Of a stretch of DNA of 64,000 bases, positions 26,760 to 60,548 are shown in pieces; positions within the stretch are counted from its first letter, which is position 1; each line of letters opens with the position of its first letter. The stretch is from Candidatus Uhrbacteria bacterium. GTDB taxonomy: Bacteria; Patescibacteriota; Patescibacteriia; UBA9934; GWF2-40-263. The stretch is from the NCBI GenBank assembly GCA_026395055.1, contig JAPLZK010000004.1, positions 82,805-146,804 of the forward strand. Direction: 5' to 3'. The translations under genes were made by a program, and so were the position numbers. The notes below the pieces were generated by a model that was not told the origin of the DNA, did no database searches, and saw nothing but the letters and a program-made list of their open reading frames with translations.

Positions 26760-26767
26760 CCATCTGT

Positions 26768-26860
26768 GTCATTGCGAGGAGGAGTCATCGACGACGAAGC
26801 AATCTTGTAGATGCAGTCGTGTCAAAAAGATTGCTTTGTCGTCGAACTCCTCGCAATGAC
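26768..26860. repeat. 93-nt imperfect inverted repeat (stem about 34 bp) between prfB and the epimerase gene
   Basis: GTCATTGCGAGGAG..TCGACGACGAAGCAATCTT / AAGATTGCTTTGTCGTCGA..CTCCTCGCAATGAC. Confidence 0.7.
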
Positions 26861-26870
26861 ACGATAAACT

Positions 26871-36000: not shown

Positions 36001-39000
36001 TTATTCCGGTTATGAAATTCCACATCAGTTACCAACGGAAAGATTCAGTCAGTTCAATTTGAATCCAAAGAAGTGGTGTGTGGATGGGAATGGAAATGTG
36101 GGAGGAAACAAAAATTCTTGTGAAAAAGATTCAGAATGTGCCCAAGGATGGACCTGCGGAGCCGCCCCACTCGATTATCGCATTGTTTATAATGCAGGTC
36201 CTTGTACGGGAAGCAGTTCCTGCCAAGTTGGATTCTGTAAAAATACAAAAACAGCCTGTGCATCCAATGCGAATTGTGGAACAGATGTAGATGCAACCAA
36301 CTTCTGTGTGTTCGGATACTGTCAGGCAAAGGGAGCAAACTGTTCAAAGGCAGACAACACAGAGTGTGCGGGAACCGCAACGCCAATTTGTGACACGGTT
36401 CAAGGAGTTTGTGTAAACCATCTTGTCGACCATCCATCCCTCACAGACGCGTGTTCAAGTGAAAATGCGTGTGCGGGAGGACAAACCTGTGTCGCAGCTG
36501 CCACAACAGCCTTTGGTTCGTGTTATCAAAATCGTTGTCTCACAGACATTCGTGATACAGACGGAGACGGATTCTCACAGCCATTAGATAAAGACCAAGC
36601 AGACGATTCACAATCCTGCCGTGGATATCCAGAGTTTGATTCGCCGTTTCCACAGAAGGTTGTGGCGCAGTGGAAAGTACCACCATTTGATCCATCTGCT
36701 GTGAATGCCGTTACGGGATATCAGTCGGTTAGCGGGCTATCTATTATTCAGTTACCTTCAGATCTAGCATCTCCATCTCAATTTGTTTCCGGTTACAACG
36801 CATCTAAGGTTTGTACGCCAATTAAATCAAAAGATGTTGATGGAAAAGATGTTTGGATTGCAAATGATAATTGTATTTGTAGCTATACAAAAGCTACGTA
36901 TGCAAAGGGTGCAGAGGATCTTTATTTTCCTACAGACACATCCATGCTTGAGTCGGGAAGAGTTCCTGAAGGAATTTGTACAGGAGGATTATTAGCAGGA
37001 AGAACTTGTAAAACGGATAAAAGTTGTACGATCCCAGAAGTAAAAGATGGTGCTGGTAATGTCACAACAAAAGAAATTCCGGGAACGTGTCAACTTCTCA
37101 CTTCATCAAATACGATGTTTGGTTGGCAGGGATATTGTTTGGAAAAAGATTCCTCCATTCAATTAAACGGAAGTACAGCAGCAAAAGACCAAGCATGTCT
37201 TACGTGGTTGCCAGTCGATCAACTCTCAGGTGCAACGGATCTTTATGGAAAGGAGACAAGTGCTGGATATCAAGTCGCATCAAATACCTATTATTGCGCA
37301 CAACCTGGAGTCGCATGGAATTTACAAGTCTCTGGTGTTGCTTGTGCGGAAACAGATGATGGATCATGTGACGATGGTGGCAATTCTCTTTTGGATGACA
37401 TGAATGATGACAAACCATATCTCAATGCATTTTGTCCAAAGGGATATTTTGCTATTCTTGGTCCGTGCGGTTCAAATGACCCAGGAAATGATAAGGATGG
37501 AAATGGATATTGTAATCAACATAGTGGTGATGATGATTATCCATATTACTGTGTTCCAACACATGCATATCACGCAGATGGAATCACAGAATGTAAAGCA
37601 CCTTATACAGTAGGAGGTTCGGCAGGAATTCCAAAACCAGGAGGTGGACTTTACTTCAACTTAATTTCTGATTTAGCGAGCGCAACCAAAACAATTGTTG
37701 GTGGCGGAAGCGGATACTTCACTTCCGTATCAGATTTTAAAGCCGCTGTTGATTATTACAAAGATTGTCAGGTAAGAGGTGTTATTCAATCCTCAACGAT
37801 TAATACCTATTTTGGTGATAAGACGCCGGGAGCAGTTCCTTCATCTGATTCAGGACATGATGGTTCAAATAGTTATTACAATTTAACCATGCATGATAAC
37901 TCGTATGCAGCTTGTAAAAGTGTTGCACAAGTAGGAAGTACTGGTTCTTCTGGTGATTTAAATGCAGCTTGGACGGATCGTGTATGGCAAGGCAAAAAAC
38001 CACTCTATACAATTTCAACAGGGTTTAATGATAATTTTGCGGGATACAAATTAGATGCGGAACCAAAGATTTTTGGACAAGCAAAAGATATTGTAGATAT
38101 CTCATTAGATCCTGCACCAGATAAAATTTTGATGTGTGACAATGAAATGTCACTTGCGGACACGGCTGGCAAATGTACGGATCCAAAAGGGGTACTTAGT
38201 ACTCCAAATGAAGGACGTGCTTTTTCAAAAGTTTCCCTTGTTGCACAAAATGGAGGAGTAGATTCAAATTGGTGTTCAAGTAAGGCGTGTACATGTAATC
38301 CATCTCAAGGCGTTGCTGACTGTAATAATTTTTTGCAGAATGTAGCACATCCTTGTTCCTTTAAGAGTATTTTGTGTGTAGGGACCTGGAATTGTGTGAA
38401 TAACAAGTGTGACGGAGGACCGTCAAAGGGTGGTGCGTGCGGAGATTCCTCGGACTGTAGTTTGTCGGCTTGTTCGGATGCGGCAAAATCTACGGCTTGT
38501 AATAAAGCTGGAGGAAAGTGTCAGGGAACAGGTACGTGTTCTAATACAGGTGGTCCAACAGGTACAGATAAAACCCAAACAACGAGTTGTAATTCTGATT
38601 TTGATTGTCAGGTAAACAAGTGTGTTCCAAATCCAAATCACAGTAATGGAACGGGTTGGGATGATGCAAATGTTTGTATCAATAAAGACAGTTCTTATGG
38701 TGCATATACAGTTAGTCAAGATTTTAGTGTCACGGAAGCAAAAAATCGCTTAAAACAAATTTTTGCAGAAGCTTATAGTCTGCAAACATTTGATGATGTT
38801 TTAAACACAAAAGGCAAATATAAACTGGCACCTGCAAATGATCCAGATGTTATAGGTTGGAAAGACCAGGGTGTTGCAACAGGAATCTGGGATTCACGTG
38901 CAACCGCAAACGGAACACACCCACCAATCATTACATCACTTGGAAGTTGTATTGGAACATCGTGTATTGAAAAAACGCCAGGTAAGTTCAATGTGAACGG

Positions 39001-39676: not shown

Positions 39677-39681
39677 GAAAC

Positions 39682-39712
39682 TAAAAACAGAACCTTTCTG
39701 GTTCTGTTTTTA
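39682..39712 (+). terminator. rho-independent terminator after the giant gene
   Basis: AAAAACAGAACC-TTTCT-GGTTCTGTTTTT. Confidence 0.8.
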
Positions 39713-39724
39713 GTTTAATGACAA

Positions 39725-46485: not shown

Positions 46486-46816
46486 TGCTAAATTTAGCAT
46501 AAAATGGCTTGACGGAACGGTTTTTTCTTGATGGAATGAACGCAGGTCACGATCCTCACCACACAACACTCTGTCTGAATCGATCGCAAGGGATTTCCTG
46601 ATGAATACGACGATTCTTTGCACCGATCACATGGACTGTTGTGTGTTTCTTGACCCGTTGATCACGGGAAACCTACGGAGTTCACCGGGATTCAATCAGT
46701 CTTTCTTGTCGACCACCTCGCACTTGCGCGTGCAGATCTCATGCGCCAAGCGAGGATGTTGACACAGGGTCAACTTCCTCATGCTGAGACCAAGTGTCTC
46801 AACTGGGAGAAGTGTC
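46486..46816 (+). promoter_or_regulatory. promoter region plus a long (about 280 nt) GC-richer structured 5' leader of the M23 peptidase gene; candidate cis-regulatory RNA
   Basis: 14-bp perfect palindrome TGCTAAATTTAGCA at 46486-46499. Candidate promoter TTGACG-17-TGGAAT. No ORF of 60 aa or more on either strand. Multiple hairpins (CCCGTTGATCACGGG, GTTGACACAGGGTCAAC, GAGACcaagtGTCTC) and long-range complementarity (CACACAACA / TGTTGTGTG). Confidence 0.4.
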
Positions 46817-48112
46817 ATGCGAAAAGATCAGTTTGTTACACGTGATGCGTTCGATACAGTGCTTCGGACCTTTTGCTGGTCCATGCTGGTCGCGATTTTC
46901 GCCTCCATGCTTGTGAGTTGCGCATCAGTCGAACCGTTTGATGCGCAGTCGAGCGTGTCTTCACCTCAAGATACAAATGAATCGTCTGGCATTTCGTTTG
47001 ACGAAGGTGGAACGGTGCCGATCATTCAAATGCCGTTTGCGGCAGGGCATGTAAGTCAGTGCACGCAGGGTGCGTATGGTCAATCGAGTCACCACAGCAC
47101 ATCCACGATGTATGACATTGATTTCGATACGTCGAACACCTCGAAAGAAGAATTGCGCGCGCCGGTTTCCGGCGTTGCGTATGTACACACGGAAGATGCG
47201 TCGAAAAATTTCGGCTATCACGTGAATATCGATCTCGGAAACGGAACGTACGTGATCTTGGGACACATGGCAGACATTGCCGCGAAGAACGGTGAGCCTG
47301 TTGTTGCCGGTCAATTTGTTGGCCATGAAGGCTGTACGGGTTATTGTAGCGGTGATCATGTTCATGTTGGTCTTCATATGGGGGACGCTCGCAAGATGGG
47401 TGAATTTGGCGCCTCCATTCCTGTTCGCTACATGCTTGCGGATAAAAATCTGAAGTCGAGAGCGGAAGCGATTGATTGCACGTCGCTTGTGTGCGGAATT
47501 AAATCGCTGGGGGATCCGGTGAACGGGCATATGTATATTTCCGCGCTCCCGTCTGTGAACGCACAGACGGTGAGTTCCGCACCTTCAGCTTCTTCATCGA
47601 GCGCACCTTCGCAACCTCCTCAACAAACGGATCCGCCCTTGATCAATCCAAAAACCTCGACAGATGATGTTTGGGTGAATGATTTGAATCTTGATGGAAT
47701 GCAAGAAACGCTCATGCTGAGCGCGGCACGTTGGGCAGATCCAATCTTGTCTGCACACGATGCGTTTGTCTGGGGAACGGGTGGGTGTTTTGATGGTTTG
47801 CTTCTACAAGCAGACCGCGTTTCCCCACAAAACGGCTATTATCAGATTGATTTTTCCAAGCTTGGAAAGCCTTGTCTTGGAGATCTCACGCTCATTTCCG
47901 CGTTAGGTTCAGACGGCAGTCTTCCAAATCTGCTCATGTCCAATTGGAACTGGTGGCAAAACGCCTCTGTGTGTTCAAAAGGATCTCCGTTTTGTCAGCT
48001 ACAAAAAAATGGTCACTCCTGGGAAGAGTGGATGATTCGTGTCTCGTGGGATCCTTATGAAGGACTCATTGCATTCGGCAATGGCTACACAAAAAATTCA
48101 CAACTTCCATAA
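46817..48112 (+). CDS. M23-family (LytM-like) zinc metallopeptidase lipoprotein with long C-terminal extension
   Basis: RBS GGGAGAAG and lipobox MLVSCAS. HSTSTMYDIDFD (HxxxD), a GYHVNIDLGNGTYVILGHM block, and GDHVHVGLHM (HxH). Confidence 0.7.
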   Translation: MRKDQFVTRDAFDTVLRTFCWSMLVAIFASMLVSCASVEPFDAQSSVSSPQDTNESSGISFDEGGTVPIIQMPFAAGHVSQCTQGAYGQSSHHSTSTMYDIDFDTSNTSKEELRAPVSGVAYVHTEDASKNFGYHVNIDLGNGTYVILGHMADIAAKNGEPVVAGQFVGHEGCTGYCSGDHVHVGLHMGDARKMGEFGASIPVRYMLADKNLKSRAEAIDCTSLVCGIKSLGDPVNGHMYISALPSVNAQTVSSAPSASSSSAPSQPPQQTDPPLINPKTSTDDVWVNDLNLDGMQETLMLSAARWADPILSAHDAFVWGTGGCFDGLLLQADRVSPQNGYYQIDFSKLGKPCLGDLTLISALGSDGSLPNLLMSNWNWWQNASVCSKGSPFCQLQKNGHSWEEWMIRVSWDPYEGLIAFGNGYTKNSQLP

Positions 48113-48120
48113 TCTTCTTG

Positions 48121-48157
48121 CTCTCGAGGTTCTCTCGAGAGTTTTTCTTTTTTTATC
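48121..48157 (+). terminator. rho-independent terminator
   Basis: CTCTCGAG-GTTCT-CTCGAGAG followed by TTTTTCTTTTTTT. Confidence 0.8.
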
Positions 48158-48210
48158 CCATTCTCATTCCTACTTTCTGCGTTCCACTTGTGCTATAATT
48201 ATTTTGAAAT

Positions 48211-51200
48211 ATGCACAAGATCTTTGCCCGAATCATCGCGGCGCTTTTGTGGCTAGAGAAACGTCTCGAACCGATCGCAAAACATCCACTTGGACGCGTG
48301 GGACTTGTTGTTTTTGTTTCTCTCCTTACGCTTTTAAATCCAAATCCTGTTCATGCAGATGGAACAAAAGCAGGTCCTGGATTTTTGGAAACAGCATTGT
48401 TGTACATTGCAAACATCGCGCTTTCTGTTGCGGTTGTTTTGTCAAAACTCGTGATCGTGATCATTCAGGTGTTGATTCCGGTCATGTTGTACAACAAGTT
48501 TTCCGAATCTCCGGTTGTGATTTCTGGTTGGGCCATTGTGCGTGACACGGTCAACATGTTTTTCGTTATTGTTCTTATCGCCATCGCCTTTGGAACCATT
48601 TTTGGAAACTCCCGATTCAAATGGCAGCAACAAATGACGCGCCTCATGATTTTCGCGATCGTCATCAACTTTTCAAAAACACTCTGCGGACTCATGATCG
48701 ACTTCGGACAAGTGGTCATGCTTACATTTGCAAACGCGATCCGTGAAATCGCGGCGGGAAACTTTGTCCAAATGCTTGGAATGGGAGATGTTTACTCGCT
48801 CAGTTCTTCAAACAAAATTTTTCAAACAGCGGCAACAGACTCAAGCGCAACAGGTGCGCAAGCCTTTGACTGGTTTGCATCCTCCATGGCGAGTGTGTTC
48901 ATGATGTTCATTGTGCTCACAACCATGATCATGCTTCTTGCGATTCTCATGTATCGCGTGGTCATGCTTTGGATTTTGATCGTTATCTCTCCGCTCGCGT
49001 GGTTTGTTGGAGGAGCAGGGGATCTCATTAAGAGTGGAGCGTATGCGGATTGGTGGAAGAAATTTATTTGTTTAGTAGCTATCGGTCCTGTTCTTACGTT
49101 TTTTCTTTGGTTGACACTCGTGGTCGCTGGAGCAGGAAATATTTCTGACACTGCTGGATTTGTTGCCTCTGGAAGCACAGACACAGCCGGAGGATTCTTA
49201 ACGCAAATTTTCGAGTTAAATCGTTTAATTAGTTTCGTGATCGCCATCGCCATGCTTTTTGCTGGGTTTGATGCCGCAAACAGTACGTGTAGTGGAGCAG
49301 GACTCGGAATGATCTCTGATCAATTAAAAGGCGGACCGGCAGGAAGCGGAGGGGTGCGCGCAGCAAAAGCGGTTGCCGGACTCGGAGCACGTCTTGGAGC
49401 AAAAGGTGGTCGAGTTGGTGCAAGTGCGGCACGTTACGGGTATAACAAAGGTGTTGTGCCGCTTGCAGAATATACGGGAGGAAAAATTGATCAATCCGCT
49501 CTTGCACAAAAGACCCCGCTTAAATATGCCACCTCTAAAGGACGTGAAGATTTGTATAGAGGTGTCGCCGCAAAGTCTGGTACGGGTATTATTGGTCAAG
49601 CTGTGAGTCGTCGTGCGACGGCACGCGCGGATAAATTGGGTTCTGAGCGCGCGGAAAAAATGGGAGCTGGCTTAGAAGCTTACAAAGCAGACTCTGGAGA
49701 ATCAAAGAATGAAACACTTAAACGCATGGCAGCAAGTGCCTCTATGACTCCCGCTGGAAAGCGTGAAGAACAGGCACTTATGTTGGACGCCATGGGTGAT
49801 GACAAACGCATGAAAGAACTCCGTGCAAGCGGTGCATGGGACACCATGTGGAAGCGTCATGGAAAAGATCTTGAAACAAATGCAAAGGGCGATAAGACCA
49901 TGAAAGCAAAGGTTGACGCGTTCAAGAAAGCGAACGCAGACGTAACAGGTGAGTGGCCAGATCCAAAGGGAGATCCAAAAGAAGCAACAAAACAAGCAGC
50001 CGCATTAAGTGCGTTCGCTCTTTCATCAAAAGACGCGCGTGGAAAATTGACGGGCATTTCCTCTGGAATCAAGAAACCAAAGAAAGAAGGTGGAGGAGAA
50101 TATACGTATGCGGAAGCCTTGGAAAAGAAATTGGTTGGAAACAAAGAACAACAAGATGCGTTTAATAGCGGTCGTGGCTCCATTTATGAAGGCATGAAAC
50201 CAGAAGAGTTGGGTCGTTTGCCAGCGCAGGCGTTGGCAGAGAATTTGACTGCAGACTTGTTGAGCAAAAAGATCAATTCAGCAGACGGACCAACGGTGTC
50301 AGCACAACTTCTTGGAAATAAAGATGCAGAAGTTCAGAAAGCTCTCCATGAACGTTTGAAAGATCCTGTAACGGGTTCCGCGTTGCGTGAAGGGTTGTTG
50401 TCTGGAGCGGGAGTTGAAAAGGGTAAGGTCACAAATTCTGAAAAGTTTGCCGCAGCTCTCACAACAAATCCTGGCTCATTAAGTTATCTGGACGATTCAA
50501 CGTTTGCGGGGCTTAGCGATAATGACATGACAGAACTTGGAAGTGGATTTGCAGACACGGATGTCTTGAAATCTGCGATTGCAAATTATCGCAAAGATCC
50601 AAAGGCGGAATCTTCTCAATTGGCTATGACACGTATTCAGGCGATTTTGGAAAAAGACCCAACTCCTGAAATGATTGCGGCACAAGGATATTTGAATGCA
50701 CAAAAGAAGACGATTGACGAAGGAACACGCATGCAAAAAATTGGTTCTGCATTGAAATCGGTTCCAGGTCAGGTTCGTGGAAGCATCAACGCTTCCATCG
50801 ATTCATCCGCGATTGATACGACAATCGAAACCACTTCACAAATTCCTGAACTTGAAAGTCAAGTTGCAGAATTGGATGCAACGGTAAATACGGCAGAAGC
50901 AGGTTCAAGTGAAATGAGAGCGGCAATGGACAAGCTTGCTTCTGTACATCAACAACTTGATGCTGCTCAACAAGCGTCCACCCAATATATTGAAAATATT
51001 GCAAGCTCAGATGATTTGTCTGCGAGGTTAGACGCAGAATTAGCAGCGCAAATGGATGAGTTGAGTAATGTACAAGGTCAGATTGCCGTAGATAGAAGCG
51101 AAAATAGACATGTAAAACAGACAGATGATCAGGCTGTTGCATTACAGAAAAAGATTGATCAAATAAATGCTGTTAAGACCAGTGTTGAAGCAGCAAAAGC

Positions 51201-51234
51201 AAAAGCAGCAGCCAAAGCTTCTAAAACTCCATAG
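48211..51234 (+). CDS. VirB6/PrgH/TrbL-like polytopic membrane protein with long Lys/Ala/Glu-rich coiled-coil C-terminal tail (T4SS-like channel candidate)
   Basis: Signal-like N-terminus, then 6 or more TM helices within the first ~370 aa and a ~630-aa hydrophilic tail. Preceded by an extended -10 TGCTATAAT. It is the first gene of the cluster that contains VirB3- and VirB4-like genes. Confidence 0.45.
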   Translation: MHKIFARIIAALLWLEKRLEPIAKHPLGRVGLVVFVSLLTLLNPNPVHADGTKAGPGFLETALLYIANIALSVAVVLSKLVIVIIQVLIPVMLYNKFSESPVVISGWAIVRDTVNMFFVIVLIAIAFGTIFGNSRFKWQQQMTRLMIFAIVINFSKTLCGLMIDFGQVVMLTFANAIREIAAGNFVQMLGMGDVYSLSSSNKIFQTAATDSSATGAQAFDWFASSMASVFMMFIVLTTMIMLLAILMYRVVMLWILIVISPLAWFVGGAGDLIKSGAYADWWKKFICLVAIGPVLTFFLWLTLVVAGAGNISDTAGFVASGSTDTAGGFLTQIFELNRLISFVIAIAMLFAGFDAANSTCSGAGLGMISDQLKGGPAGSGGVRAAKAVAGLGARLGAKGGRVGASAARYGYNKGVVPLAEYTGGKIDQSALAQKTPLKYATSKGREDLYRGVAAKSGTGIIGQAVSRRATARADKLGSERAEKMGAGLEAYKADSGESKNETLKRMAASASMTPAGKREEQALMLDAMGDDKRMKELRASGAWDTMWKRHGKDLETNAKGDKTMKAKVDAFKKANADVTGEWPDPKGDPKEATKQAAALSAFALSSKDARGKLTGISSGIKKPKKEGGGEYTYAEALEKKLVGNKEQQDAFNSGRGSIYEGMKPEELGRLPAQALAENLTADLLSKKINSADGPTVSAQLLGNKDAEVQKALHERLKDPVTGSALREGLLSGAGVEKGKVTNSEKFAAALTTNPGSLSYLDDSTFAGLSDNDMTELGSGFADTDVLKSAIANYRKDPKAESSQLAMTRIQAILEKDPTPEMIAAQGYLNAQKKTIDEGTRMQKIGSALKSVPGQVRGSINASIDSSAIDTTIETTSQIPELESQVAELDATVNTAEAGSSEMRAAMDKLASVHQQLDAAQQASTQYIENIASSDDLSARLDAELAAQMDELSNVQGQIAVDRSENRHVKQTDDQAVALQKKIDQINAVKTSVEAAKAKAAAKASKTP

Positions 51235-51242
51235 ACGAACTT

Positions 51243-53000
51243 ATGTCGGAGGAAACACAAACCGTATTGCCAGACCGCGTCCTCGATTTCCTCAGTGATT
51301 TCGATGCGGTTAAGTTCGCGCAAGGGTTTGTGAAGACGTATGGATTGAAAGATGATGACGTGTCACGTGTTATGAACTTGGCAGAAGATGTTGTCTACGG
51401 TGAAGTCGCCGTAGACACGCTTCCTGCAGAGATGGTTTCTCGATTTAGTATCGACCAAACAAAATCCAAACAGGCCGCGCTTGAACTTGCAGAAGCTCGT
51501 TTGCTTCCTGTTCAAGAGGTTTTACCTGGCGTTGTACAGCAAATTCGTGCATGGGGTGGAGAGGTGGCGTTAAGTACAAAACCAGAAGCTGCGGCAATGA
51601 CGCCAGAGGTGTTTGTGCAAACATCCTTGCAGGATGTCATTAAGGAAATGCCTTCACATCTTCAGGGTCGCCTTGCGCACATTCTCGGACTTTACGTTTC
51701 AAAGCATTCCGACAAAGCTCTTGTCATGGATATGCTTACGCGATCTGAGAAAGTTGGTGGGGTTGAGTTTGGGGCAGAAGATGCGGAAGGGTTGTTATCG
51801 TTTGTGGATGAGAAGATGAAAGGAAAAAATATTGCGGTTGAACAGAGTGTTTTGGAAGAAAAGAAAATCGAAGCGCCAAAAAAGATCGAACTCATGGAAA
51901 CACCAAAAGTTGTTGTTGCTCCAAAGATTGTTGAGTCCGTTCCTGTTGTGAAAGAAGTTCCTGTAGCGATTGCGCCAAAAGATGTTCCCCCTGTTCGTAA
52001 TGAGGTAGAAGACGCACATGAAGTCGCGCAAGTTGCTTCTGCAAAGCAGACTGCCATGGAAACGCCTAAGCATGAACCCATGACCATTGAAGAAATGGTC
52101 GGACAGGTTTGCGCGCTCGAACCCATGAAGTTGCCAGACGGAACTCTTGTGGACAGATGCAAACAGATTGTTGAATCTCGATTACGAGAAGTACGTAATG
52201 CATCCGACACGCAAAAACAAATTGAACGTTCGATTGAAGCCGGTGGACTTGGTGTTTCTGGAAGAAAGTTGGCGGACATGATGCAAAGCATTGAGCACGC
52301 GTTTGATGCATTGCAACAACATGCATCCGAGAAAGTTGCACAGGAAAAATCTGTGTATCTTGAAAAGCAACAGTCACAAGAAATAGAAAAACAAACACTC
52401 GCGGAAAAAGAAGAAAAGATGATGACGAAGCGTTACGTTGAACTGACAGGGAAGATGCCAGACGCGCACGTATCACCCGCAGCACCTTCAAATGCGCGTG
52501 TAAGTGGATCTGTTTCAAAAGACGCAGCAATGGAACAACGTGCACAGAATATTGATACCGCGAAAGTTCGAAGTGTTATTGAGGCAACAAAAAAAGCAAA
52601 AGACCACCCCCAGCCCCTCCTTGTGAAGGAGGGGGGCTTGCAGCGGCCATCTGTTCAAGATGTGAAGTTTGTAAAGCGATTATCTGGGCCGATTGATGAA
52701 TTGCGTTCTGTGTCGCTTGTAGATTTTCGTCGTATGGCAAAGAGTCCGGGGCTTGCAACAGAAAAGATGATGAGTTTGGTTCAGTTGGTAGAAGATCAAG
52801 GATACGATAAACGTGTGGAGGCTATTCGCGCGTGGCAATCATCCCCACTTTATCAACAGTATCTCGCGATCGCGCGCAGTGCCATGCAAGAAGGAAAGCC
52901 TCTTGAAGACATGCGTGCACAACTCGCGAAACTCGGAGACACACTGACAAAAGAAGAGCTTGCGGCCATTTTACAATTGAACGGAGAGCTCAGATTCTGA
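51243..53000 (+). CDS. hypothetical soluble protein (585 aa) inside the T4SS-like cluster
   Basis: No TM helices and no recognisable motif. Acidic with coiled-coil-like segments. Tightly packed in the operon. Confidence 0.45.
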   Translation: MSEETQTVLPDRVLDFLSDFDAVKFAQGFVKTYGLKDDDVSRVMNLAEDVVYGEVAVDTLPAEMVSRFSIDQTKSKQAALELAEARLLPVQEVLPGVVQQIRAWGGEVALSTKPEAAAMTPEVFVQTSLQDVIKEMPSHLQGRLAHILGLYVSKHSDKALVMDMLTRSEKVGGVEFGAEDAEGLLSFVDEKMKGKNIAVEQSVLEEKKIEAPKKIELMETPKVVVAPKIVESVPVVKEVPVAIAPKDVPPVRNEVEDAHEVAQVASAKQTAMETPKHEPMTIEEMVGQVCALEPMKLPDGTLVDRCKQIVESRLREVRNASDTQKQIERSIEAGGLGVSGRKLADMMQSIEHAFDALQQHASEKVAQEKSVYLEKQQSQEIEKQTLAEKEEKMMTKRYVELTGKMPDAHVSPAAPSNARVSGSVSKDAAMEQRAQNIDTAKVRSVIEATKKAKDHPQPLLVKEGGLQRPSVQDVKFVKRLSGPIDELRSVSLVDFRRMAKSPGLATEKMMSLVQLVEDQGYDKRVEAIRAWQSSPLYQQYLAIARSAMQEGKPLEDMRAQLAKLGDTLTKEELAAILQLNGELRF

Positions 53001-53012
53001 TAGAATAAGCAT

Positions 53013-53444
53013 ATGCCAGAGCAATACGTGGTTCCACAATTTATTGATTCGGAAGATAAAATTTTCGGGCCGGTTACGGCACGACAGTTTATTATTTTGA
53101 TGGTAGTTGGACTCGTGGAATTTCTGTTGTTCAAATTATTATCGTTTGTTTTGTTTTTGGTGATTGGTGTGCCATTTTTGGCCATCGGAGGAATGATTGC
53201 ATTTACAAAGATCAATGGTCAGCCATTTCATTTTTTTATCTTGAACCTTGTTCAGACGATGAAGAAACCAAGACTACGTGTGTGGGATAAGACAGTAACA
53301 GATGCACAGTTACGCGATTACATCATCAAACCCCCACCTCTTGTCTTAACGCGTTTTGTTCATAAGGCATCCATTGGAACCTCTCGTATTGAAGAACTCA
53401 CGCTTGTGGTGAATACGGGGGGAGTTTATAAACCAGAAGAGTAA
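53013..53444 (+). CDS. PrgI/VirB3-like small two-TM protein
   Basis: N-terminal FIDSEDKIFGPVTARQFIILMVVGL followed by a second TM helix, the pattern seen in Gram-positive VirB3 analogues. Lies directly upstream of the VirB4 region. Confidence 0.45.
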   Translation: MPEQYVVPQFIDSEDKIFGPVTARQFIILMVVGLVEFLLFKLLSFVLFLVIGVPFLAIGGMIAFTKINGQPFHFFILNLVQTMKKPRLRVWDKTVTDAQLRDYIIKPPPLVLTRFVHKASIGTSRIEELTLVVNTGGVYKPEE

Positions 53445-53445
53445 A

Positions 53446-53530
53446 AAGGGACTAGGGACGAGGGATAAGGGGTTCGTGGCGAATTAGCTACGAACCCCTC
53501 GCCCCTAACCCCTCGCCCCTCCAGATCCTT
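53446..53530 (+). repeat. G-tract arm / C-tract arm inverted-repeat leader element (copy 2), ending at the ATG of the 53531 gene
   Basis: AAAGGGACTAGGGACGAGGGATAAGGGGTTCGTGGCGAATTAGCTACGAACCCCTCGCCCCTAACCCCTCGCCCCTCC. It has a 10-bp core stem (AGGGGTTCGT/ACGAACCCCT) with G-tract and C-tract extensions. Confidence 0.7.
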
Positions 53531-54217
53531 ATGCCTGAAATGCAATCTAAACAACTTGCGAAACCAAAACCTGGACCTGCAACCCAGCAGTATTTGGATA
53601 TCGCAGAAATTCGGGATGACATGGTTATTTTGAAAGACGGAACCGTTCGTTCGGTCTTGCTTGTGTCAAGCATTAATTTCGCGTTGAAATCTGGAGATGA
53701 ACAAGAAGCCATCATTCAGGGATACATGACGTTTTTGAACGGACTAGAATATCCTATTCAAATTGTGATTCAATCGCGCAAAATGAACATTGATGCGTAC
53801 ATGGGGCATTTGGCAGAGCAGCAAAAAAAGACCACGAACGACTTGTTGCGCGCACAGATCGTGGATTATCGCACGTTCGTGAATGAGCTCGTTGAACTTG
53901 GACAAATCATGCAGAAACGATTTTATCTTGTGCTTCCGTATGATCCTATTACAAACAAAGGAAAGAATTTCTTTGCACGCTTAGGAGACGCGTTGTCCCC
54001 AACAGCGGCCGCAAAGTTGAATCAAAAACAGATCGCGGATCGCATTGAGCAGCTCTCAAGACGTTCAGAACTCATTGCGGGAGAGTTAAGTAGCATGGGA
54101 CTTTCATCTGTCAGACTTGATACACAGGCACTGATCCAAATGTATTACGAGGTTTACAACCCAGATTTGTTTGACACAGAACGCATGGTAGATCTGAATC
54201 AGATTCTTCACGAATAA
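53531..54217 (+). CDS. T4SS-associated protein resembling the N-terminal domain of VirB4/TrbE-type ATPases (separate gene or 5' portion of a split virB4)
   Basis: YLDIAEIRDDMVILKDGTVRSVLLVSSINFALKSGDEQEAIIQGYMTFLNGLEYPIQIVIQS follows the pattern of VirB4 N-terminal regions. Its stop is 2 nt before the next ATG, in a different frame. Confidence 0.4.
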   Translation: MPEMQSKQLAKPKPGPATQQYLDIAEIRDDMVILKDGTVRSVLLVSSINFALKSGDEQEAIIQGYMTFLNGLEYPIQIVIQSRKMNIDAYMGHLAEQQKKTTNDLLRAQIVDYRTFVNELVELGQIMQKRFYLVLPYDPITNKGKNFFARLGDALSPTAAAKLNQKQIADRIEQLSRRSELIAGELSSMGLSSVRLDTQALIQMYYEVYNPDLFDTERMVDLNQILHE

Positions 54218-54219
54218 AT

Positions 54220-56319
54220 ATGGCAATTGATATTGGGCAAATTAAATTGAACACCCCATCTGCTCCGCCACCAAAACCGGTTGCGCAAAAAGCGGCAGAT
54301 GTTCAGCTCGCGTCAGAACGCACGGTTTTGGAAGAAGAGCGTATCTATCGCCGAGGTGTTGTGACGGTTCGGGATTTGATTTCTCCGGCCGCGTTTGAGG
54401 TTACCCCAAAATATTTGCGTCTGTCTGGACTTTATGTCCGTACACTTTTTATCGTGACGTATCCACGTCACATTGGTCTTGGGTGGTCAAGTCCGATTAT
54501 CAATCTCAACAAGACATTTGATGTTGCCATGTTTTTTTACCCGCTTAAAGCGGAAATCATTTTGAAGCAACTTCAAAAAAAGGTAGGTATTTTTCAAGCA
54601 AAAATTTTAGGAGATGCAGACAAAGGCGCGCCACGTGATCCTCTTGCAGAAACGGCCCTTCGAGACATTGAAGATTTGCGTGATGCGCTGACGCAGGGGA
54701 TTGAACACTTTTTTCAATTCGCGTTTTATCTCACCATCTACGGAAAAGACATGGATGAACTGGATAAATTTTCTCAACAAGTCGAATCACTTTTTGGAAG
54801 CAAGTTGATTTACTCCAAAAGTGGATTCTATCAAACAGAACAAGGATTCAATTCAACGATTCCACTCGGAAACGACGAGCTCATGATTACGTACAACATG
54901 AACACGTCGCCGATTGCGGCTTCATTTCCGTTCATCAGTTCTGATTTGACATCCGACAACGGAATTTTGTATGGCGTGAACCGTCACAACAACTCGCTGA
55001 TTATTTTTGATCGATTTAGTTTGCAAAACGCAAACTCGGTTGTGTTTGCCACGTCTGGTGCAGGAAAGTCTTACACCATCAAGCTCGAGATTTTGCGTTC
55101 CCTCATGATGGGGGTGGATGTGATTGTTATCGACCCTGAAATGGAATACAACCATTTGTCTGATGCGGTGGGTGGAACATACATCAATGTGTCGCTCGCA
55201 TCAGATGCAAAGGTGAATCCGTTCGATTTGCCGCGCGCTATTGGAGAGGGAACAAAAGTGGAAGACATTATTCGAAGCGCGGTTATTACCCTGAAAGGAT
55301 TATTGCGTCTCATGATTGGCGTTCCGATTGGGGAACAGGGAAAGCTTGGATTTACTCCAGAAGAAGATTCTATTCTAGACCGAGCGTTGATCGAAACATA
55401 TGCGAAGAAAGACATTACGCCAGATACAAAGTCTTTGGCAGATGTTGAAACTCCCGTGATGAACGACTTCAAAGATGTTTTGGATGGAATGGAAGGTGCA
55501 GAAAATATTGTGGCACGTTTGAAAAAATATACGGACGGAACATTCTCGGGATTGTTGAATTCACCAACCACGGTCGCCATGAACAACCAGTTTGTGGTTT
55601 TCTCCGTGCGTGATTTGGAAGACGAACTTCGAGCTGTTTCCATTTACTCGATCGTGAACTACATCTGGAACGTTGTGCGTTCAGAACGCAAGAAACGCAT
55701 TCTCGTTATCGATGAAGCTTGGTGGCTCATGCAACAAGAAGAATCCGCAAAGTTTATTTTCGCTCTCGTGAAGCGCGCACGTAAATATTTCTTGGGAGTG
55801 ACAACGATTACACAGGACGTTGCAGACTTCCTTGGTTCACCCTATGGTCAGGCAATTGTGACAAACTCGTCCATTCAATTGTTGATGAAGCAATCTCCGT
55901 CTGGAGTTGAACGTGTGGTAAATACATTTAACCTCACGGATGGCGAAAAATTCTTGTTGCTTGAGTCTGGAGTCGGAGAAGGAATTTTCTTTGCTGGGCA
56001 AAAACATGCGGCCATTAAAGTGGTTGCGTCTTATGCAGAAGATCAGATTGTGACCACAAACCCACAACAACTTCTTGAAATGGAAAAGGCTCGTAAAGCT
56101 ATTGAAGCACAGGTTGCTGTAGAAGAAGAACCTCCGGAAGCACCTGTCGAAGCTCCTGTTGCGGTAGAAGAAAAAGAATTGGCGGGAGATGTAGACGCTG
56201 CTGCAAAAACACGTGAAGAACAAAACCTTGCTGCGTCTGGTGCGGCGCAAGACTTACTTGCACAAGAAGCAACAGGGCAAGCAGAAGCAGATCGGATTCG
56301 AAATTCGTTAACGTCGTAA
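54220..56319 (+). CDS. VirB4/TrbE/PrgJ-like conjugative-type ATPase
   Basis: Walker A VVFATSGAGKSYT and Walker B RILVIDEAWWLM. A Gram-positive VirB4-like N-terminal block (YVRTLFIVTYPRHIGLGWSSPIIN). Acidic C-terminal tail. Confidence 0.7.
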   Translation: MAIDIGQIKLNTPSAPPPKPVAQKAADVQLASERTVLEEERIYRRGVVTVRDLISPAAFEVTPKYLRLSGLYVRTLFIVTYPRHIGLGWSSPIINLNKTFDVAMFFYPLKAEIILKQLQKKVGIFQAKILGDADKGAPRDPLAETALRDIEDLRDALTQGIEHFFQFAFYLTIYGKDMDELDKFSQQVESLFGSKLIYSKSGFYQTEQGFNSTIPLGNDELMITYNMNTSPIAASFPFISSDLTSDNGILYGVNRHNNSLIIFDRFSLQNANSVVFATSGAGKSYTIKLEILRSLMMGVDVIVIDPEMEYNHLSDAVGGTYINVSLASDAKVNPFDLPRAIGEGTKVEDIIRSAVITLKGLLRLMIGVPIGEQGKLGFTPEEDSILDRALIETYAKKDITPDTKSLADVETPVMNDFKDVLDGMEGAENIVARLKKYTDGTFSGLLNSPTTVAMNNQFVVFSVRDLEDELRAVSIYSIVNYIWNVVRSERKKRILVIDEAWWLMQQEESAKFIFALVKRARKYFLGVTTITQDVADFLGSPYGQAIVTNSSIQLLMKQSPSGVERVVNTFNLTDGEKFLLLESGVGEGIFFAGQKHAAIKVVASYAEDQIVTTNPQQLLEMEKARKAIEAQVAVEEEPPEAPVEAPVAVEEKELAGDVDAAAKTREEQNLAASGAAQDLLAQEATGQAEADRIRNSLTS

Positions 56320-56320
56320 T

Positions 56321-56890
56321 ATGATGAGTCCGAAACAACGTCGAAACACGATTGTGATCCTAAGCATTCTTTTGCTTTTGATTTTTCTTTGGTTGCTCTC
56401 GTTCTTGATTCCAAAATCAAAACCAAAAACAGAAGTGCCTGCTTCACAAACTTCCGCATCTACTCCGTCACAAACACCATTCACGACACAGCAATTAGAA
56501 CAAGAAAAAGTGGTGCGCACGCAAGCTTCTGGAATGACCACCACCGCAAAATTATTTGCGGAACGTTATGGAAGTTATTCAAATGAAGCAAACTTTCAAA
56601 ATATTCGTGACGTGATTCCACTCATGTCTGCAAAATTTGGTGCAGCAACAACAACAGCGCTTGCAACAAAAAAAGTGCCAATCGGATTTTACGGGATCAC
56701 CACACGTGTGATTACCGTGAAGGTTGTCTCACAAGATGAGAAAAAAGGAACAGCCGTGATCGACATGTCCACGCAGCGTGTAGAAGAAAACGGATCCGCA
56801 CAAAATACAACAACCAAGTATCAAGATATCGAACTTTCTTTTGTGAAAGAGTCTGGTGTATGGGTGGTGGATTCTGCAAAATGGTTATAG
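56321..56890 (+). CDS. membrane-anchored protein, VirB8/PrgL-like candidate (N-terminal TM plus a ~120-aa periplasmic domain)
   Basis: Single TM (IVILSILLLLIFLWLLSFLIP), then a Ser/Thr-rich linker and a small globular domain. Position is immediately after virB4. Assignment is by architecture only. Confidence 0.3.
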   Translation: MMSPKQRRNTIVILSILLLLIFLWLLSFLIPKSKPKTEVPASQTSASTPSQTPFTTQQLEQEKVVRTQASGMTTTAKLFAERYGSYSNEANFQNIRDVIPLMSAKFGAATTTALATKKVPIGFYGITTRVITVKVVSQDEKKGTAVIDMSTQRVEENGSAQNTTTKYQDIELSFVKESGVWVVDSAKWL

Positions 56891-57567
56891 ACGCATTGTT
56901 CCCAAGATTTTGTCTTTCGTGTAAACGCGAAGGGCAAATTTTTTGTTTAGACTGCGCATCGAATTGGATTGCAAGACCAGAACCGGTCGCGTGTCCGTTT
57001 TGTGGTATCCGAGGGTCAGCGCGAACATGTCTTCGTTGCCGAAAAGAGAATTATCTTGATGGACTCGTTTCGTATTTGCCATACGGAAACCCAATTGTTC
57101 GAGGGGTCATCGGGTATTGGAAATATGATGGGGATCGATCGGTTGAGCGAACACTGAAACAATGGATCGAACAATCACGCGGTCGACTTCGACCTGTTTT
57201 CGAAGAATTTGTTGTCACACACGTGCCAATCCATTCCTCGAGAAAGCGACTGCGAGGATTCGATCAGGCGGAGGTTTTGTCGAACTGGGTTGGTGAGATT
57301 TTCGATGCGCCTATCGAGATGTTACTCGTTCGATCGCGCAAAACAAAGCCGCAAGCAAAGACACATCATGATAAACGTCGTGTGGGATCCCTCGACGGGA
57401 TCTTTGAGATTCATCCGCAAGTCATTGAGCTTCCCGCACGCGTTTTGCTGTGCGACGACGTATTTACGAGCGGGGCAACCATGGATGCAGCTGCTAAATG
57501 CCTAAAAGACGCAGGGGTTGAAGAAGTATGGGGGTTTGTAATGGCAAAAGGATCTCATGAAGCTTGA
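56881..57567 (+). CDS. comFC: competence protein ComFC (phosphoribosyltransferase-type)
   Basis: N-terminal zinc-finger cysteines (CLSCKREGQIFCLDC ... CPFCG...CLRC). C-terminal PRTase motif VLLCDDVFTSGATMDAAAKCLKDAG. An upstream ATG at 56860 is an alternative start. Confidence 0.75.
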   Translation: MVIDALFPRFCLSCKREGQIFCLDCASNWIARPEPVACPFCGIRGSARTCLRCRKENYLDGLVSYLPYGNPIVRGVIGYWKYDGDRSVERTLKQWIEQSRGRLRPVFEEFVVTHVPIHSSRKRLRGFDQAEVLSNWVGEIFDAPIEMLLVRSRKTKPQAKTHHDKRRVGSLDGIFEIHPQVIELPARVLLCDDVFTSGATMDAAAKCLKDAGVEEVWGFVMAKGSHEA

Positions 57568-57608: not shown

Positions 57609-57631
57609 ACCGGCGCAGTGCCGGTTTTTTG
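57609..57631 (+). terminator. rho-independent terminator after comFC
   Basis: ACCGGC-GCAGTG-CCGGT followed by TTTTTT. Confidence 0.75.
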
Positions 57632-57660
57632 AAGGGGTTTCCCCAAGGAGGGATAGGAAA

Positions 57661-58737
57661 ATGCTGAAGTTCCGTCAAAGCGTTTCGGTGGCCGTATTGG
57701 CTGCCTTTTTCCTGAGCACGACCGCGTGCCAGGAACGTGTTGTCTACACGTCGCCCGCCATGTCGGGTGGTGGTCAGACTGTTTCGGGGGCAGCTCCGGG
57801 CATCAGTCAGGAGCAGTTTGATCTGCAAGCCGCGATCGGTCTTCTGCGTACCAACAAGGTGCGTGATGCCGCGTCGCTCGAAGCGGTCATCAACGACCAG
57901 AGTTCTGGCATCAACAACATCGACCTCGATGGTGACGGCCAGATCGACTACATCGGCATTCAGGAATCGGTTTCCGGCAACGAGCGGCACATGGCTTTCA
58001 TGTCGTGTCCGTCCTCGAAGGTTGGCGAGCCGACCAAGATTGCGGACGTGACCATTCGCGACGACGGCCAACAAGTCTTCGTTGGTGGTGGGTACTCGAG
58101 CGTCTTTCAGGGTTATAACAGTTCGTACTATCAGTATTACGTCCCTCGGGCATCGTTTGGTGATGCGCTGTTCTTGGCCTGGATGCTGACGCCCTCGCGT
58201 CCGTATTATGCGTATCATCCGTACGGCTACGGTTGGGCCCCGCGTCGCGTTTACGCGCCGTCGGTTCTGACTTCCACGCGTACGTCGTCGACCATTACGC
58301 GCGAAGTGCGCATGGCTCCGGTCCAGAAGGCTGCTCCTCCGGCAAACTATGCCAAGGCCGCCGCGGTCAAGATGCCGCCGAGTCTCGCGAGCAAGCCGAC
58401 GGGACAGGGACTTTCCGGAACGGCCGGTCAGATGCGTGATTACAAGGTGAACAATAAGCCGGCTCAGGCTGGCACCGCGTTCGGTGCGACGAAGCCCGCG
58501 GCTCTGCCTGCGCCTTCCTCGCCCAAGCCCGCTTCGAGCGGTTGGGGAGGCGGTGGTTCTGCTGTGAAAGCTCCGTCGAGTGGCGGTGGCTGGGGTGGCG
58601 GTTCTTCCTCTGCGAAGCCTTCGGGTGGAAGCGGTTGGGGAGGTGGATCTTCTGCGTCGAAGCCCGCGAGCAGTGGCTGGGGTGGCGGCGGAAGTCGGAT
58701 GGGTGGCGGGTCTTCTGGCGGCGGTCGTCGGAAGTAA
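57661..58737 (+). CDS. lipoprotein with DxDxDG Ca-binding-like motif and C-terminal (S/A)SGWGGGxS repeats; lies in the high-GC island
   Basis: RBS AAGGAGGG. Signal peptide and lipobox MLKFRQSVSVAVLAAFFLSTTAC. Motif DLDGDGQIDYIG. Five repeats of xSGWGGGGS. Local GC is about 60% against about 45% for the background. Confidence 0.55.
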   Translation: MLKFRQSVSVAVLAAFFLSTTACQERVVYTSPAMSGGGQTVSGAAPGISQEQFDLQAAIGLLRTNKVRDAASLEAVINDQSSGINNIDLDGDGQIDYIGIQESVSGNERHMAFMSCPSSKVGEPTKIADVTIRDDGQQVFVGGGYSSVFQGYNSSYYQYYVPRASFGDALFLAWMLTPSRPYYAYHPYGYGWAPRRVYAPSVLTSTRTSSTITREVRMAPVQKAAPPANYAKAAAVKMPPSLASKPTGQGLSGTAGQMRDYKVNNKPAQAGTAFGATKPAALPAPSSPKPASSGWGGGGSAVKAPSSGGGWGGGSSSAKPSGGSGWGGGSSASKPASSGWGGGGSRMGGGSSGGGRRK

Positions 58738-58767
58738 TCAACCAACCAACACAAGGAGGAAGAGACC

Positions 58768-59931
58768 ATGAGTACACAGCTTGCGGCGCCCAGTGTGCAA
58801 AAGAAACGTCCGGATTGGCAGACGGAATCCATCTATCTGACGGTTCTGTACTTGCTTATCGAATGTCGGCAGAAGTTGCCGGTCATGTCGGACAATACAA
58901 CCGATGTCGGTTTCATCGAAAACGAACTCGGGGAAATGTACGCGAAGGGTCTCATCAAGATCAACGGCCCCTACTGGGAAGCGACGGACAAAAACGATCG
59001 CGACGTCAGTGGGAAGTTGGTTGGTGCGGCAAATGGCATTGCCTTCTTGGGTAAAGCGGTCGCCATGTGTGACCAGCTCATGAAGTTCGAGATTTTCGGC
59101 GGAGTTCGCCTGCAACAGGAGCTCAAGCCGCATGAACGTCTCGACGAAGATCCGTATCAGGTTCGTGATCACATCTGGGATCCGCGCTTCGTGGGTCCAA
59201 AGGAAGAAGATCCGGATGCGACCGATATGCGCATTGCGCAGATGATGTTCTTTTCGGAAATGATGTCGGATCAGATTGACGGCGTCGTCGATCCTCACCG
59301 CATCGTGTTTCTGCAAAAGCTCGCGTCGGGCCGACTCAAGGGGAAGGACTTCTGGTTCGACCTCAGGCTCGGTACGTTCTTCAAGGAAGTGGAAGCGATC
59401 GTCGCTTCTGCGTATGAGTGGCGTCAGATTGTTCCGGACGACGAGGCTCAGGCCATCGAAGTCATGAAGACCCTGTACGCCGCCGGCATGATCGAGAATC
59501 GCAAGCGCGCTCTCGACGCTGGCGAATGTTCCAACTGTCACATTCCGCTCGCGCTGTTCGAAGAAGAAGCCCGTAAAAACGGTGGTACGCTTCACGAGTG
59601 TCCGAATCCGGAATGCGGCGCAAGCTTTGATCCTCCGGCACCGCAAGGTTCGTCGGAAGCGTGTGCGTGCTGTGGCGAAGACATTTGGCCCGGCCAACGT
59701 CAGTGCTCTGGCTGCGGCGCAATCGTGGATCGTCGCTACACGCCCGGCAAGGTTGTGGAAACAGAACGTGTCACCACCTCGACGACCGTCGGCACGGTGT
59801 ATGATCCGTACTACGACACCTGGGGCTACGGCTACGGGTACTACGGTTATGCGCCGTACGGCTACTACGATCCCTGGAATCCGGTTGCCGACGTCGTCGC
59901 CTTCGGAATTCTCTGCGCAGTTCTTCTGTAG
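58768..59931 (+). CDS. hypothetical protein with zinc-ribbon-like CxxC pairs and Tyr/Gly-rich C-terminus plus C-terminal TM; lies in the high-GC island
   Basis: Strong RBS AAGGAGGAAGAG. CSNCH...CPNPEC...CACCGE...CSGCG. GYGYGYYGYAPYGYYDPWNP. Terminal hydrophobic segment VAFGILCAVLL. Confidence 0.5.
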   Translation: MSTQLAAPSVQKKRPDWQTESIYLTVLYLLIECRQKLPVMSDNTTDVGFIENELGEMYAKGLIKINGPYWEATDKNDRDVSGKLVGAANGIAFLGKAVAMCDQLMKFEIFGGVRLQQELKPHERLDEDPYQVRDHIWDPRFVGPKEEDPDATDMRIAQMMFFSEMMSDQIDGVVDPHRIVFLQKLASGRLKGKDFWFDLRLGTFFKEVEAIVASAYEWRQIVPDDEAQAIEVMKTLYAAGMIENRKRALDAGECSNCHIPLALFEEEARKNGGTLHECPNPECGASFDPPAPQGSSEACACCGEDIWPGQRQCSGCGAIVDRRYTPGKVVETERVTTSTTVGTVYDPYYDTWGYGYGYYGYAPYGYYDPWNPVADVVAFGILCAVLL

Positions 59932-60019: not shown

Positions 60020-60548
60020 AAATGGCGAATTTGAGGAATTTTTTATCTGCCGCTCGAATTCCTTGTATAATTTCGTGCTTAAGGTCTGCGAACTTGGCGT
60101 CGAATCTGTCTGTGAAGTGGAGAAGATCCGCTTTTGTGGCAAAACGATTCAGATCTTCTTTTGTGGCAAAACGATTTAAATCTGTGGCTATTTTTGTCTC
60201 AAGTTTTGCGATAGCCTGTTCCAATTCTATTTTTGTTGCGGCAGTTTCAATGATCCATTCGAATTTTTCTTCTGTTTCTGTTTTAAATTCGTGCATCTCA
60301 GATTTAAATTCGTTCATTTCTGATTTAAACTCATGCATCTCGGATTTAAACTCGTGCATTTCTTGGCGAAAGGATTTGTTTTCCGATTTGGATTCTGTGA
60401 GTTCTGTTTTAACGTATGCTAAAACTTCTAAAATTTTCTTGTTTGTTTCATCTATGTTATTTAATCGAACATCAATACCACCCAATCGTGTTTCTACGCG
60501 ATCAAAACGATGTTCGATATTTGATGTTTGATCAAGTTTGCTTGTCAT
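60018..60548 (-). CDS. coiled-coil protein with internal tandem repeats (4 x EMHEFKS-like, 2 x DLNRFATK)
   Basis: SFRQEMHEFKSEMHEFKSEMNEFKSEMHEFKTE, encoded by 21-nt tandem DNA repeats at about 60285-60370. No TM helices. Confidence 0.5.
   Translation of the reverse strand: MTSKLDQTSNIEHRFDRVETRLGGIDVRLNNIDETNKKILEVLAYVKTELTESKSENKSFRQEMHEFKSEMHEFKSEMNEFKSEMHEFKTETEEKFEWIIETAATKIELEQAIAKLETKIATDLNRFATKEDLNRFATKADLLHFTDRFDAKFADLKHEIIQGIRAADKKFLKFAI

Follow-up and report, generated by a model that had tools for sequence, protein, structure and literature searches.

A probable Patescibacteria-type, relaxase-free type IV secretion system next to comF in Candidatus Uhrbacteria

Much of bacterial diversity belongs to Patescibacteria. 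No type IV secretion system (T4SS) other than theirs is known to be indispensable for the growth of the cell that carries it. In Southlakia epibionticum, a relaxase-free, Gram-positive-like T4SS is essential for epibiotic growth (Wang et al., 2023; PMC10633639). A survey of 3035 Patescibacteria genomes placed their VirB4 proteins in a monophyletic clade nested in mating-pair formation class FATA (MPF-FATA), with TrsD, PrgI/VirB3, and VirB6 encoded near virB4 (Quinonero-Coronel et al., 2025; PMC12102498). VirB8-like proteins are almost restricted to the class ABY1, in which the supplement of that survey places Uhrbacteria, and ABY1 loci commonly include comF, recG, and radA; M23 or lysozyme genes are also present in the published Patescibacteria loci (PMC12102498). 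A 2025 review repeats these findings and speculates that the T4SS and the pilus take up host molecules (PMC12857230). Here we analyze a 64,000-nt stretch of a Candidatus Uhrbacteria genome (GCA_026395055.1, contig JAPLZK010000004.1, forward strand, 82,805-146,804), hereafter the window, which contains a cluster of seven genes at 48211-57567 that is very probably a chromosomal, relaxase-free T4SS of this Patescibacteria type.

The seven open reading frames (ORFs) are closely packed on the + strand and fill the cluster. Successive genes are separated by 8, 12, 86, 2, and 1 nt, and the last two overlap by 10-31 nt, according to which comF start codon is chosen. All coordinates are window positions, and labels such as L001 denote compared loci. 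The genes, with the peptidase gene immediately upstream listed last, are as follows.

48211-51234, + strand, extended VirB6/TrbL-like polytopic protein, 1007 aa (transmembrane prediction, transitive TrbL matches)
51243-53000, + strand, soluble all-alpha protein, 585 aa (no known relatives)
53013-53444, + strand, PrgI/VirB3-like protein, 143 aa (PF12666)
53531-54217, + strand, TrsD-like protein, 228 aa (N-terminal regions of VirB4 profiles)
54220-56319, + strand, VirB4 ATPase, 699 aa (conju_CD1110, P-loop_TraG)
56321-56890, + strand, VirB8-like bitopic protein, 189 aa (VirB8 fold, NTF2-like domain)
56860-57567, + strand, ComFC (ComF family), 235 aa (TIGR00201)
46781-48112, + strand, M23 peptidase (Peptidase_M23, 7.7e-11)

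Identity of the cluster and its proteins

The 699-aa protein matches the VirB4 families conju_CD1110 (2e-95), TraC (2.3e-56), P-loop_TraG (1.6e-27), and VirB4_CagE (1.4e-25), and its translation contains both a Walker A (SGAGKS) and a Walker B (ILVIDEAW) motif. The best NCBIfam model is of the Gram-positive CD1110 type; a weak match to CedB (4.6e-13) covers the ATPase core only and lies far below the match to conjugative VirB4. We compared the cluster with 75 related loci retrieved from a species-level genome collection, all of which belong to Patescibacteria (Uhr-, Falkow-, and Magasanikbacteria, the "Parcubacteria group", and similar). VirB4 is 45-92% identical to its counterparts in these loci, reaching 92% in two metagenome-assembled genomes of Uhrbacteria (L001 and L002), whereas among 3165 plasmid records even the best matches do not exceed 35% identity.

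The preceding 228-aa ORF, absent from the naming in an earlier note on this DNA, matches the N-terminal region of NCBIfam VirB4_plasma (6.4e-10) and, below the curated cut-off, TrsD/TraD (1.2e-4). The conju_CD1110 profile, 752 positions long, is shared out between the two proteins, positions 3-105 being covered by the 228-aa ORF and positions 176-730 by the 699-aa ORF. On these profile matches we identify the 228-aa product as TrsD-like, that is, as a predicted detached N-terminal domain of VirB4. The split is not a frameshift or a pseudogene, since trsD is a separate ORF in 74 of the 75 loci and its ratio of nonsynonymous to synonymous substitution rates (dN/dS) is 0.03.

The PrgI/VirB3-like protein matches PF12666 (E = 3.9e-10, 40.6 bits with a cut-off of 27) and has transmembrane (TM) helices at residues 17-35 and 45-63. 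The 189-aa protein is bitopic: a TM helix near the N-terminus is joined through a linker to an NTF2-like domain with a VirB8 fold, and the protein resembles PrgL, TraM, and TcpC. ComFC matches TIGR00201 comF (3.5e-20; 72.8 bits, under the equivalog cut-off of 233.55), GntX (7.6e-15), Pribosyltran, and DZR_2. It consists of an N-terminal double zinc ribbon and a phosphoribosyltransferase-like domain, with four CxxC pairs and the phosphoribosyltransferase motif VLLCDDVFTSGAT in the translation.

The assignment of the 1007-aa protein is less direct. The protein has a signal-like N-terminus, ∼6-7 predicted TM helices within residues 70-350, and a hydrophilic C-terminal tail of ∼600 aa that is in part coiled-coil. 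It has no direct family match in Pfam or NCBIfam scans. Among 41 aligned homologues, five match PF04610 (TrbL/VirB6), with the best E-value of 1.4e-5 and all scores under the gathering score; the L043 homologue spans profile positions 2-196 of 215 with 23 bits, just below that score. A few homologues also weakly match the NCBIfam conjugal membrane-protein models CD3337/EF1877 and MMCAP2_0566. The gene sits 5' of prgI in 42 loci. Several points count against the assignment: it proceeds through sub-threshold, transitive matches, the family profile has no match among PDB sequences, and hhalign alignment of the family with the CD1112-type clostridial VirB6 is not significant. Alignment with a 779-aa protein of Pontibacillus is not significant either. 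We consider it likely but not proven that the 1007-aa protein is VirB6-like.

The gene order VirB6-585aa-PrgI-TrsD-VirB4-VirB8 recurs in about 65-74 of the 75 related ABY1 loci, across Uhr-, Falkow-, and Magasanikbacteria. All cluster genes are under purifying selection, with dN/dS of 0.03-0.27 relative to orthologues, dS being close to saturation. We assign the cluster to the Patescibacteria T4SS because of the matches of VirB4, TrsD, PrgI, and ComF, the VirB8 fold, the transitive TrbL matches, the conserved gene order, the match to Uhrbacteria, and the purifying selection.

Most of what the earlier note had proposed for the individual genes is borne out. It had described a Gram-positive-type T4SS-like module; VirB4 and PrgI match their families directly, and the remaining assignments survived testing. 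In particular, the VirB4-like ATPase carries the Walker motifs claimed for it, the small protein with two TM helices reaches PF12666 above the gathering score as expected of a PrgI/VirB3 analogue, and TM prediction agrees with the VirB6 architecture of a polytopic N-terminus and a long tail. The last membrane-anchored gene, proposed to be VirB8-like, encodes a protein for which the VirB8 fold is supported. The cluster ends in ComFC, as was claimed, and the 585-aa gene is still without an assignable function after profile scans and a structure search.

Chromosomal setting and mobility genes

No mobile-element gene is found among the annotated genes of the window, and no relaxase or integrase family is matched by the scanned window ORFs. 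The 3' side of the window is continued by L078, a Logan contig that is identical to the last 2.46 kb and extends it by 8.2 kb; apart from a MacB/FtsX-ABC-HlyD-type transporter, the ORFs of this extension are all unannotated, and no relaxase or integrase is recorded among its genes. For a coupling protein, there is no Pfam or NCBIfam match in the window, and tblastn with VirD4 of pCDC3875 was negative both in the window and in L078. Outside the cluster, the window encodes ValRS, ArgRS, SerRS, NusA, YidC, GroEL, RF1, KsgA, a Ser/Thr kinase, transporters, tRNAs, and large secreted proteins. In total, 48 kb upstream and 14.6 kb downstream of the cluster, L078 included, contain housekeeping and envelope genes only.

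These flanks bear on the possibility that the cluster is an integrative and conjugative element (ICE), or the decayed remnant of one, with its relaxase, coupling protein, and integrase lying outside the window. VirB4, PrgI, and VirB6 do follow the order seen in Gram-positive conjugative plasmids such as pCDC3875, and VirD4-like genes are found elsewhere in many Patescibacteria genomes (PMC12102498). However, not only are the surroundings of housekeeping and envelope type, they are also syntenic in related Uhrbacteria, which keep serS upstream and ribD and bacA downstream. Furthermore, GC content and skew are unremarkable and show no break at the cluster, all of its genes are under purifying selection, and relaxases occur in only 103 of the 3035 surveyed Patescibacteria genomes (PMC12102498). 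A remnant is rejected on flanks, synteny, and composition, and the ICE explanation as a whole is largely refuted, retaining a minimal probability.

As relaxase, integrase, and adjacent coupling protein are all absent and the context is housekeeping, we infer that the cluster is neither an ICE nor a conjugation apparatus. This agrees with the earlier note, which had seen no relaxase, coupling protein, or integrase and had argued against a conjugative element, while pointing out that a relaxase, VirD4, or integrase just beyond the window would turn the cluster into an ordinary ICE. None was found in the 64 kb or in the 8.2 kb past the 3' end.

Between comF and ribD lies a GC-rich two-gene insert (57661-59931; 58% compared with about 45%), shared only with L002. 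One of its proteins is lipoprotein-like with GWGGG repeats; the second combines Cys-rich, zinc-ribbon-like motifs (CxxC/CxxxxC) with a C-terminal anchor rich in Tyr and Gly. Neither matches Pfam. We considered the pair as a member of the conserved cluster and rejected it as a variable insert. A further + strand ORF (60022-60531) looks non-coding and was not retained as a gene.

Internal hairpins and the 585-aa family

On the + strand, terminator-like hairpins with T-runs border the cluster on both sides, at 48120-48142, 3' of the M23 peptidase gene, and at 57609-57634, downstream of comF. An extended -10-like box, TGCTATAAT, read from the sequence at 48191-48199 (+), precedes the first ATG by 11 nt. 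It is not listed by a consensus promoter scan because a matching -35 hexamer is missing; if used as a promoter, it would yield a nearly leaderless transcript. Two more hairpins lie inside the cluster.

53447-53520, + strand, long intercistronic hairpin in the prgI-trsD spacer, 37-nt arms, no U-tract
56909-56948, + strand, terminator-like hairpin of 13 pairs with the T-run TTTTTTGTTT, top-listed in the terminator scan

The first of these occupies the 86-nt spacer and is the longest inverted repeat of the window, with a minimum free energy of -46.6 kcal/mol (z = -5.4). A long-stemmed hairpin of about 27-45 pairs is present at the same spot in all five closest relatives (L001, 9174-9312; L002, 3768-3884; L003, 1592-1728; L004, 9207-9312; L005, 9190-9302), with z from -6.6 to -11.5. 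Its sequence is common to L002, L003, and L005, while the versions in the window, L001, and L004 are each distinct. In more distant Uhrbacteria, the prgI-trsD spacer is only 8-31 nt long and has no such hairpin. A repeated mobile element is ruled out by the single copy in the window and by the absence of the window hairpin from all compared loci. The hairpin is a candidate element of RNA processing, RNA stability, or insulation. In several of the hairpins at this position, the 5' arm is purine-rich and the 3' arm is pyrimidine-rich.

The second hairpin begins 19 nt past the stop codon of the virB8-like gene and lies inside codons 17-30 of comF, in the 5' part of the gene, which encodes the zinc ribbon. 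It is nearly invariant in nucleotide sequence among the window, L001, L003, L004, and L006, despite dS > 1. Here, 8 of 11 conserved degenerate codons are identical in five genomes, compared with 24 of 113 over the whole gene. At the same virB8-like/comF junction, L022, L033, and L041 have intergenic terminator-like hairpins. Given the conserved hairpin at the start of comF and the junction hairpins in the other three loci, comF seems to be insulated, at least in part, from the genes of the channel, and the element in the window is a candidate for an attenuator separating it from the T4SS genes.

The transcription unit proposed in the earlier note, running from one promoter to one terminator, is probably not correct, as internal hairpins lie between prgI and trsD and at the start of comF. 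The observations behind it are sound: the co-directional, tightly packed genes ending in comFC agree with the ORF coordinates, a hairpin follows comFC, and the extended -10 that had been placed near 48200 is located.

The 585-aa protein has no predicted TM helix. Its AlphaFold2 model (mean pLDDT 77.7) is all-helical, with four small domains separated by disordered linkers. Domain 2 (residues 118-198) is a paralogue of domain 3 (residues 278-345), with which it aligns at an hhalign probability of 95% (E = 3.8e-8). Nothing usable came from scanning Pfam and NCBIfam directly, and a search with the predicted structure returned no significant structural match. A weak profile match of domain 2 to the RNA-binding core of the M domain of the signal recognition particle protein SRP54/Ffh (E = 0.009) is no more than a lead. 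The protein is 100% identical to NTX72_05260 of Candidatus Uhrbacteria in NCBI. The gene is present in 67 of the 75 loci, invariably just 5' of prgI, and with a profile of the family, 2862 representative clusters are recovered at E ≤ 1e-3 from a set of 1.84 billion proteins. The locus draws attention to a protein family that is very large, lacks annotation, and behaves like a core component of the cluster. This family and the two hairpins inside the cluster may be new elements.

Elsewhere in the window, 30011-39676 encodes a giant secreted protein of 3221 aa that is rich in Cys and matches CBM_4_9 only weakly; a perfect hairpin with 17-nt arms (39678-39716) comes after it. The spacer 3' of the RF1 gene contains a nested long inverted repeat (26766-26862; perfect outer arms of 16 nt and inner arms of 24 nt), another unusually long intergenic hairpin of this genome. 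On the - strand, 3218-6442 encodes a 1074-aa protein in which nine metal-binding motifs of the MopE type occur together with FG-GAP repeats.

Possible function and related systems

Given T4SS architecture in general, VirB4 hexamers would dock on VirB3, VirB6, and VirB8 to make an ATP-driven channel through a single membrane. In this cluster, TrsD and VirB4 would energize a channel built of the PrgI, VirB6-like, and VirB8-like proteins, and the M23 hydrolase would open the cell wall locally. The peptidase has a single TM helix (residues 27-45) and is therefore membrane-anchored, and its gene is directly 5' of the VirB6-like gene in ∼15 Uhrbacteria loci; it is a plausible candidate for a VirB1-type cell-wall hydrolase or a VirB1 substitute of the system. 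It is moderately likely that the assembled machine would form a contact-dependent conduit to the host cell and so serve an epibiotic lifestyle.

As to the direction of transport, we lean slightly and tentatively towards uptake of host material rather than export. In ABY1, host nucleic acid would be the best-supported cargo because of the comF, radA, and recG neighbourhood. Where enough downstream sequence is available to judge (58 loci), comF comes directly after the virB8-like gene in 27, and radA and recG lie within 10 kb of the cluster in 37 and 29 of the 75 loci, respectively. Incoming single-stranded DNA would be handed to ComFC, as well as to RadA and RecG in the sister lineages that encode them nearby, with the 585-aa protein acting as a cytoplasmic adaptor. 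Import requires neither a relaxase nor a coupling protein: the archaeal Ced system and ComB of Helicobacter pylori take up DNA with VirB4-family ATPases and polytopic membrane partners but have neither of the two. In H. pylori, moreover, ComFC is needed downstream of T4SS-mediated uptake.

A number of observations weigh against this picture. A DsbA-like gene takes the position of comF in about half of the related loci. Neither radA nor recG is found in the window or in its 8.2-kb extension, and no VirB2-like pilin gene was found in the window, either by tblastn with a T4SS_pilin-domain protein from L030 or among the small ORFs inspected. Because of the junction hairpins, here and in L022, L033, and L041, co-transcription of comF with the T4SS genes is at best attenuated. 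Finally, ComEC, ComF, and DprA are dispensable in S. epibionticum, where the T4SS is essential, and hence the essential role of the T4SS in that species does not run via ComF; Wang et al. lean to protein export or an alternative role (PMC10633639).

About as likely as uptake is that the same machine does a different job, exporting proteins or effectors to the host cell or assembling a host-directed pilus of the VirB2 type or an adhesive structure, with comF, radA, and recG as mere inherited neighbours on the chromosome that have no functional tie to it. Besides the genetic evidence from S. epibionticum just cited, this would account for the terminator-like elements that part comF from the T4SS genes. 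In many loci that lack comF at this position, genes for a DsbA-like thioredoxin and for RadA come next, and recG is not far away. In one ABY1 lineage, a T4SS_pilin (PF18895)-domain protein is encoded right after the virB8-like gene (L030, 12622-13740), and in several Uhrbacteria such genes lie 6-10 kb downstream, beyond recG and radA (L010, L013, and L015, at about 18-22 kb). DsbA-like and T4SS_pilin genes beside these clusters fit extracytoplasmic assembly. On the other hand, no candidate effector or pilin gene is recognized in or beside the cluster in the window, and no DsbA-like gene, pilin gene, or virD4 is found in the window or in the 8.2-kb extension. Moreover, the three DNA-processing genes recur nearby across several ABY1 orders, above the expectation for unrelated genes (PMC12102498).

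The strongest form of the idea put forward in the earlier note, a new competence machine in which a VirB4/VirB6 channel replaces ComEC, we consider improbable. The adjacency of comFC speaks for it, and profile scans of the window found no comEC or comEA gene. However, ComEC, DprA, and ComFC are conserved across the phyla of the candidate phyla radiation, and ComEC is the transformation channel of S. epibionticum (PMC10633639), and the terminator-like element would at least partly insulate comF from the T4SS genes.

A more elaborate proposal builds on the uptake reading and the possibly new elements. The 585-aa protein would be an unrecognized core subunit of the ABY1 T4SS, a cytoplasmic receptor or adaptor in place of the coupling protein. 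Host nucleic acid would enter through the machine and be passed on to ComFC, RadA, and RecG, and three expression units of the locus would have their stoichiometry set by the two conserved hairpins. Taken as a whole, this is unlikely.

Among known systems, Ced and ComB share with the cluster a relaxase-free VirB4-family ATPase. They differ in that no CedA-type or ComB-type partners are identified here.

A relaxase-free VirB4 cluster on a megaplasmid of Pontibacillus sp. ALD_SL1 (NZ_CP062975; L076, 351-361 kb) is among the best non-Patescibacteria matches, with VirB4 34% identical. It comprises genes for a pilin-like protein, the 779-aa hypothetical protein, small hypothetical proteins, and VirB4, followed by a 1050-aa M23 peptidase, and lies beside flagellar genes on an 898-kb replicon typed as non-mobilizable. 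Unlike the Uhrbacteria cluster, it has no comF and no detectable homologue of the 585-aa or the 189-aa protein.

The closest conjugative group is that of the Gram-positive MPF-FATA T4SSs, including the CD1110/CTn2 type with pCDC3875, the Prg/Pcf system of pCF10, and the Trs systems of pGO1/pSK41 with TrsD-TrsE. The pCDC3875-type order (VirB6-like, PrgI, an extra gene, VirB4) is similar to that of the window, and in pGO1 TrsD likewise precedes VirB4. By contrast, the cluster in the window has no VirD4, relaxase, SSB, or SLT/CHAP hydrolase, its VirB4 is at most 35% identical, and it is chromosomal and not mobile. Neither of the two Gram-positive loci examined contains a match to hidden Markov models of the VirB6-like, 585-aa, or 189-aa protein.

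The best match is the T4SS of the Patescibacteria clade itself, as represented by SEML1_0006-0019 of S. epibionticum and by the 3035-genome survey. The earlier note had spoken of a poorly characterized system, which does not hold: the Patescibacteria T4SS, its lack of a relaxase, and the co-location with comF in ABY1 have already been published (PMC12102498; PMC10633639; PMC12857230). The finding is correct, but it is a rediscovery of a published system and not a new kind of system. The Saccharibacteria locus has six pilin genes, whereas the window shows no VirB2-like pilin array, whether within the cluster or adjacent to it. Neither the 585-aa helical protein nor the two hairpin elements are described in the portions of PMC12102498 and PMC10633639 available to us. 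A coordination of comF with the T4SS has been suggested in the literature, and the RNA-level elements dividing comF from the channel genes temper this view. Both systems are chromosomal and relaxase-free and have a VirB4, here of probable MPF-FATA type, with adjacent TrsD and PrgI/VirB3 genes, a VirB6-like gene, here a likely one, and a peptidoglycan hydrolase nearby. With the ABY1 systems in particular, the cluster shares the VirB8-like protein and the adjoining comF, and it serves as a clean example from ABY1 in which the VirB8 component has structural support.

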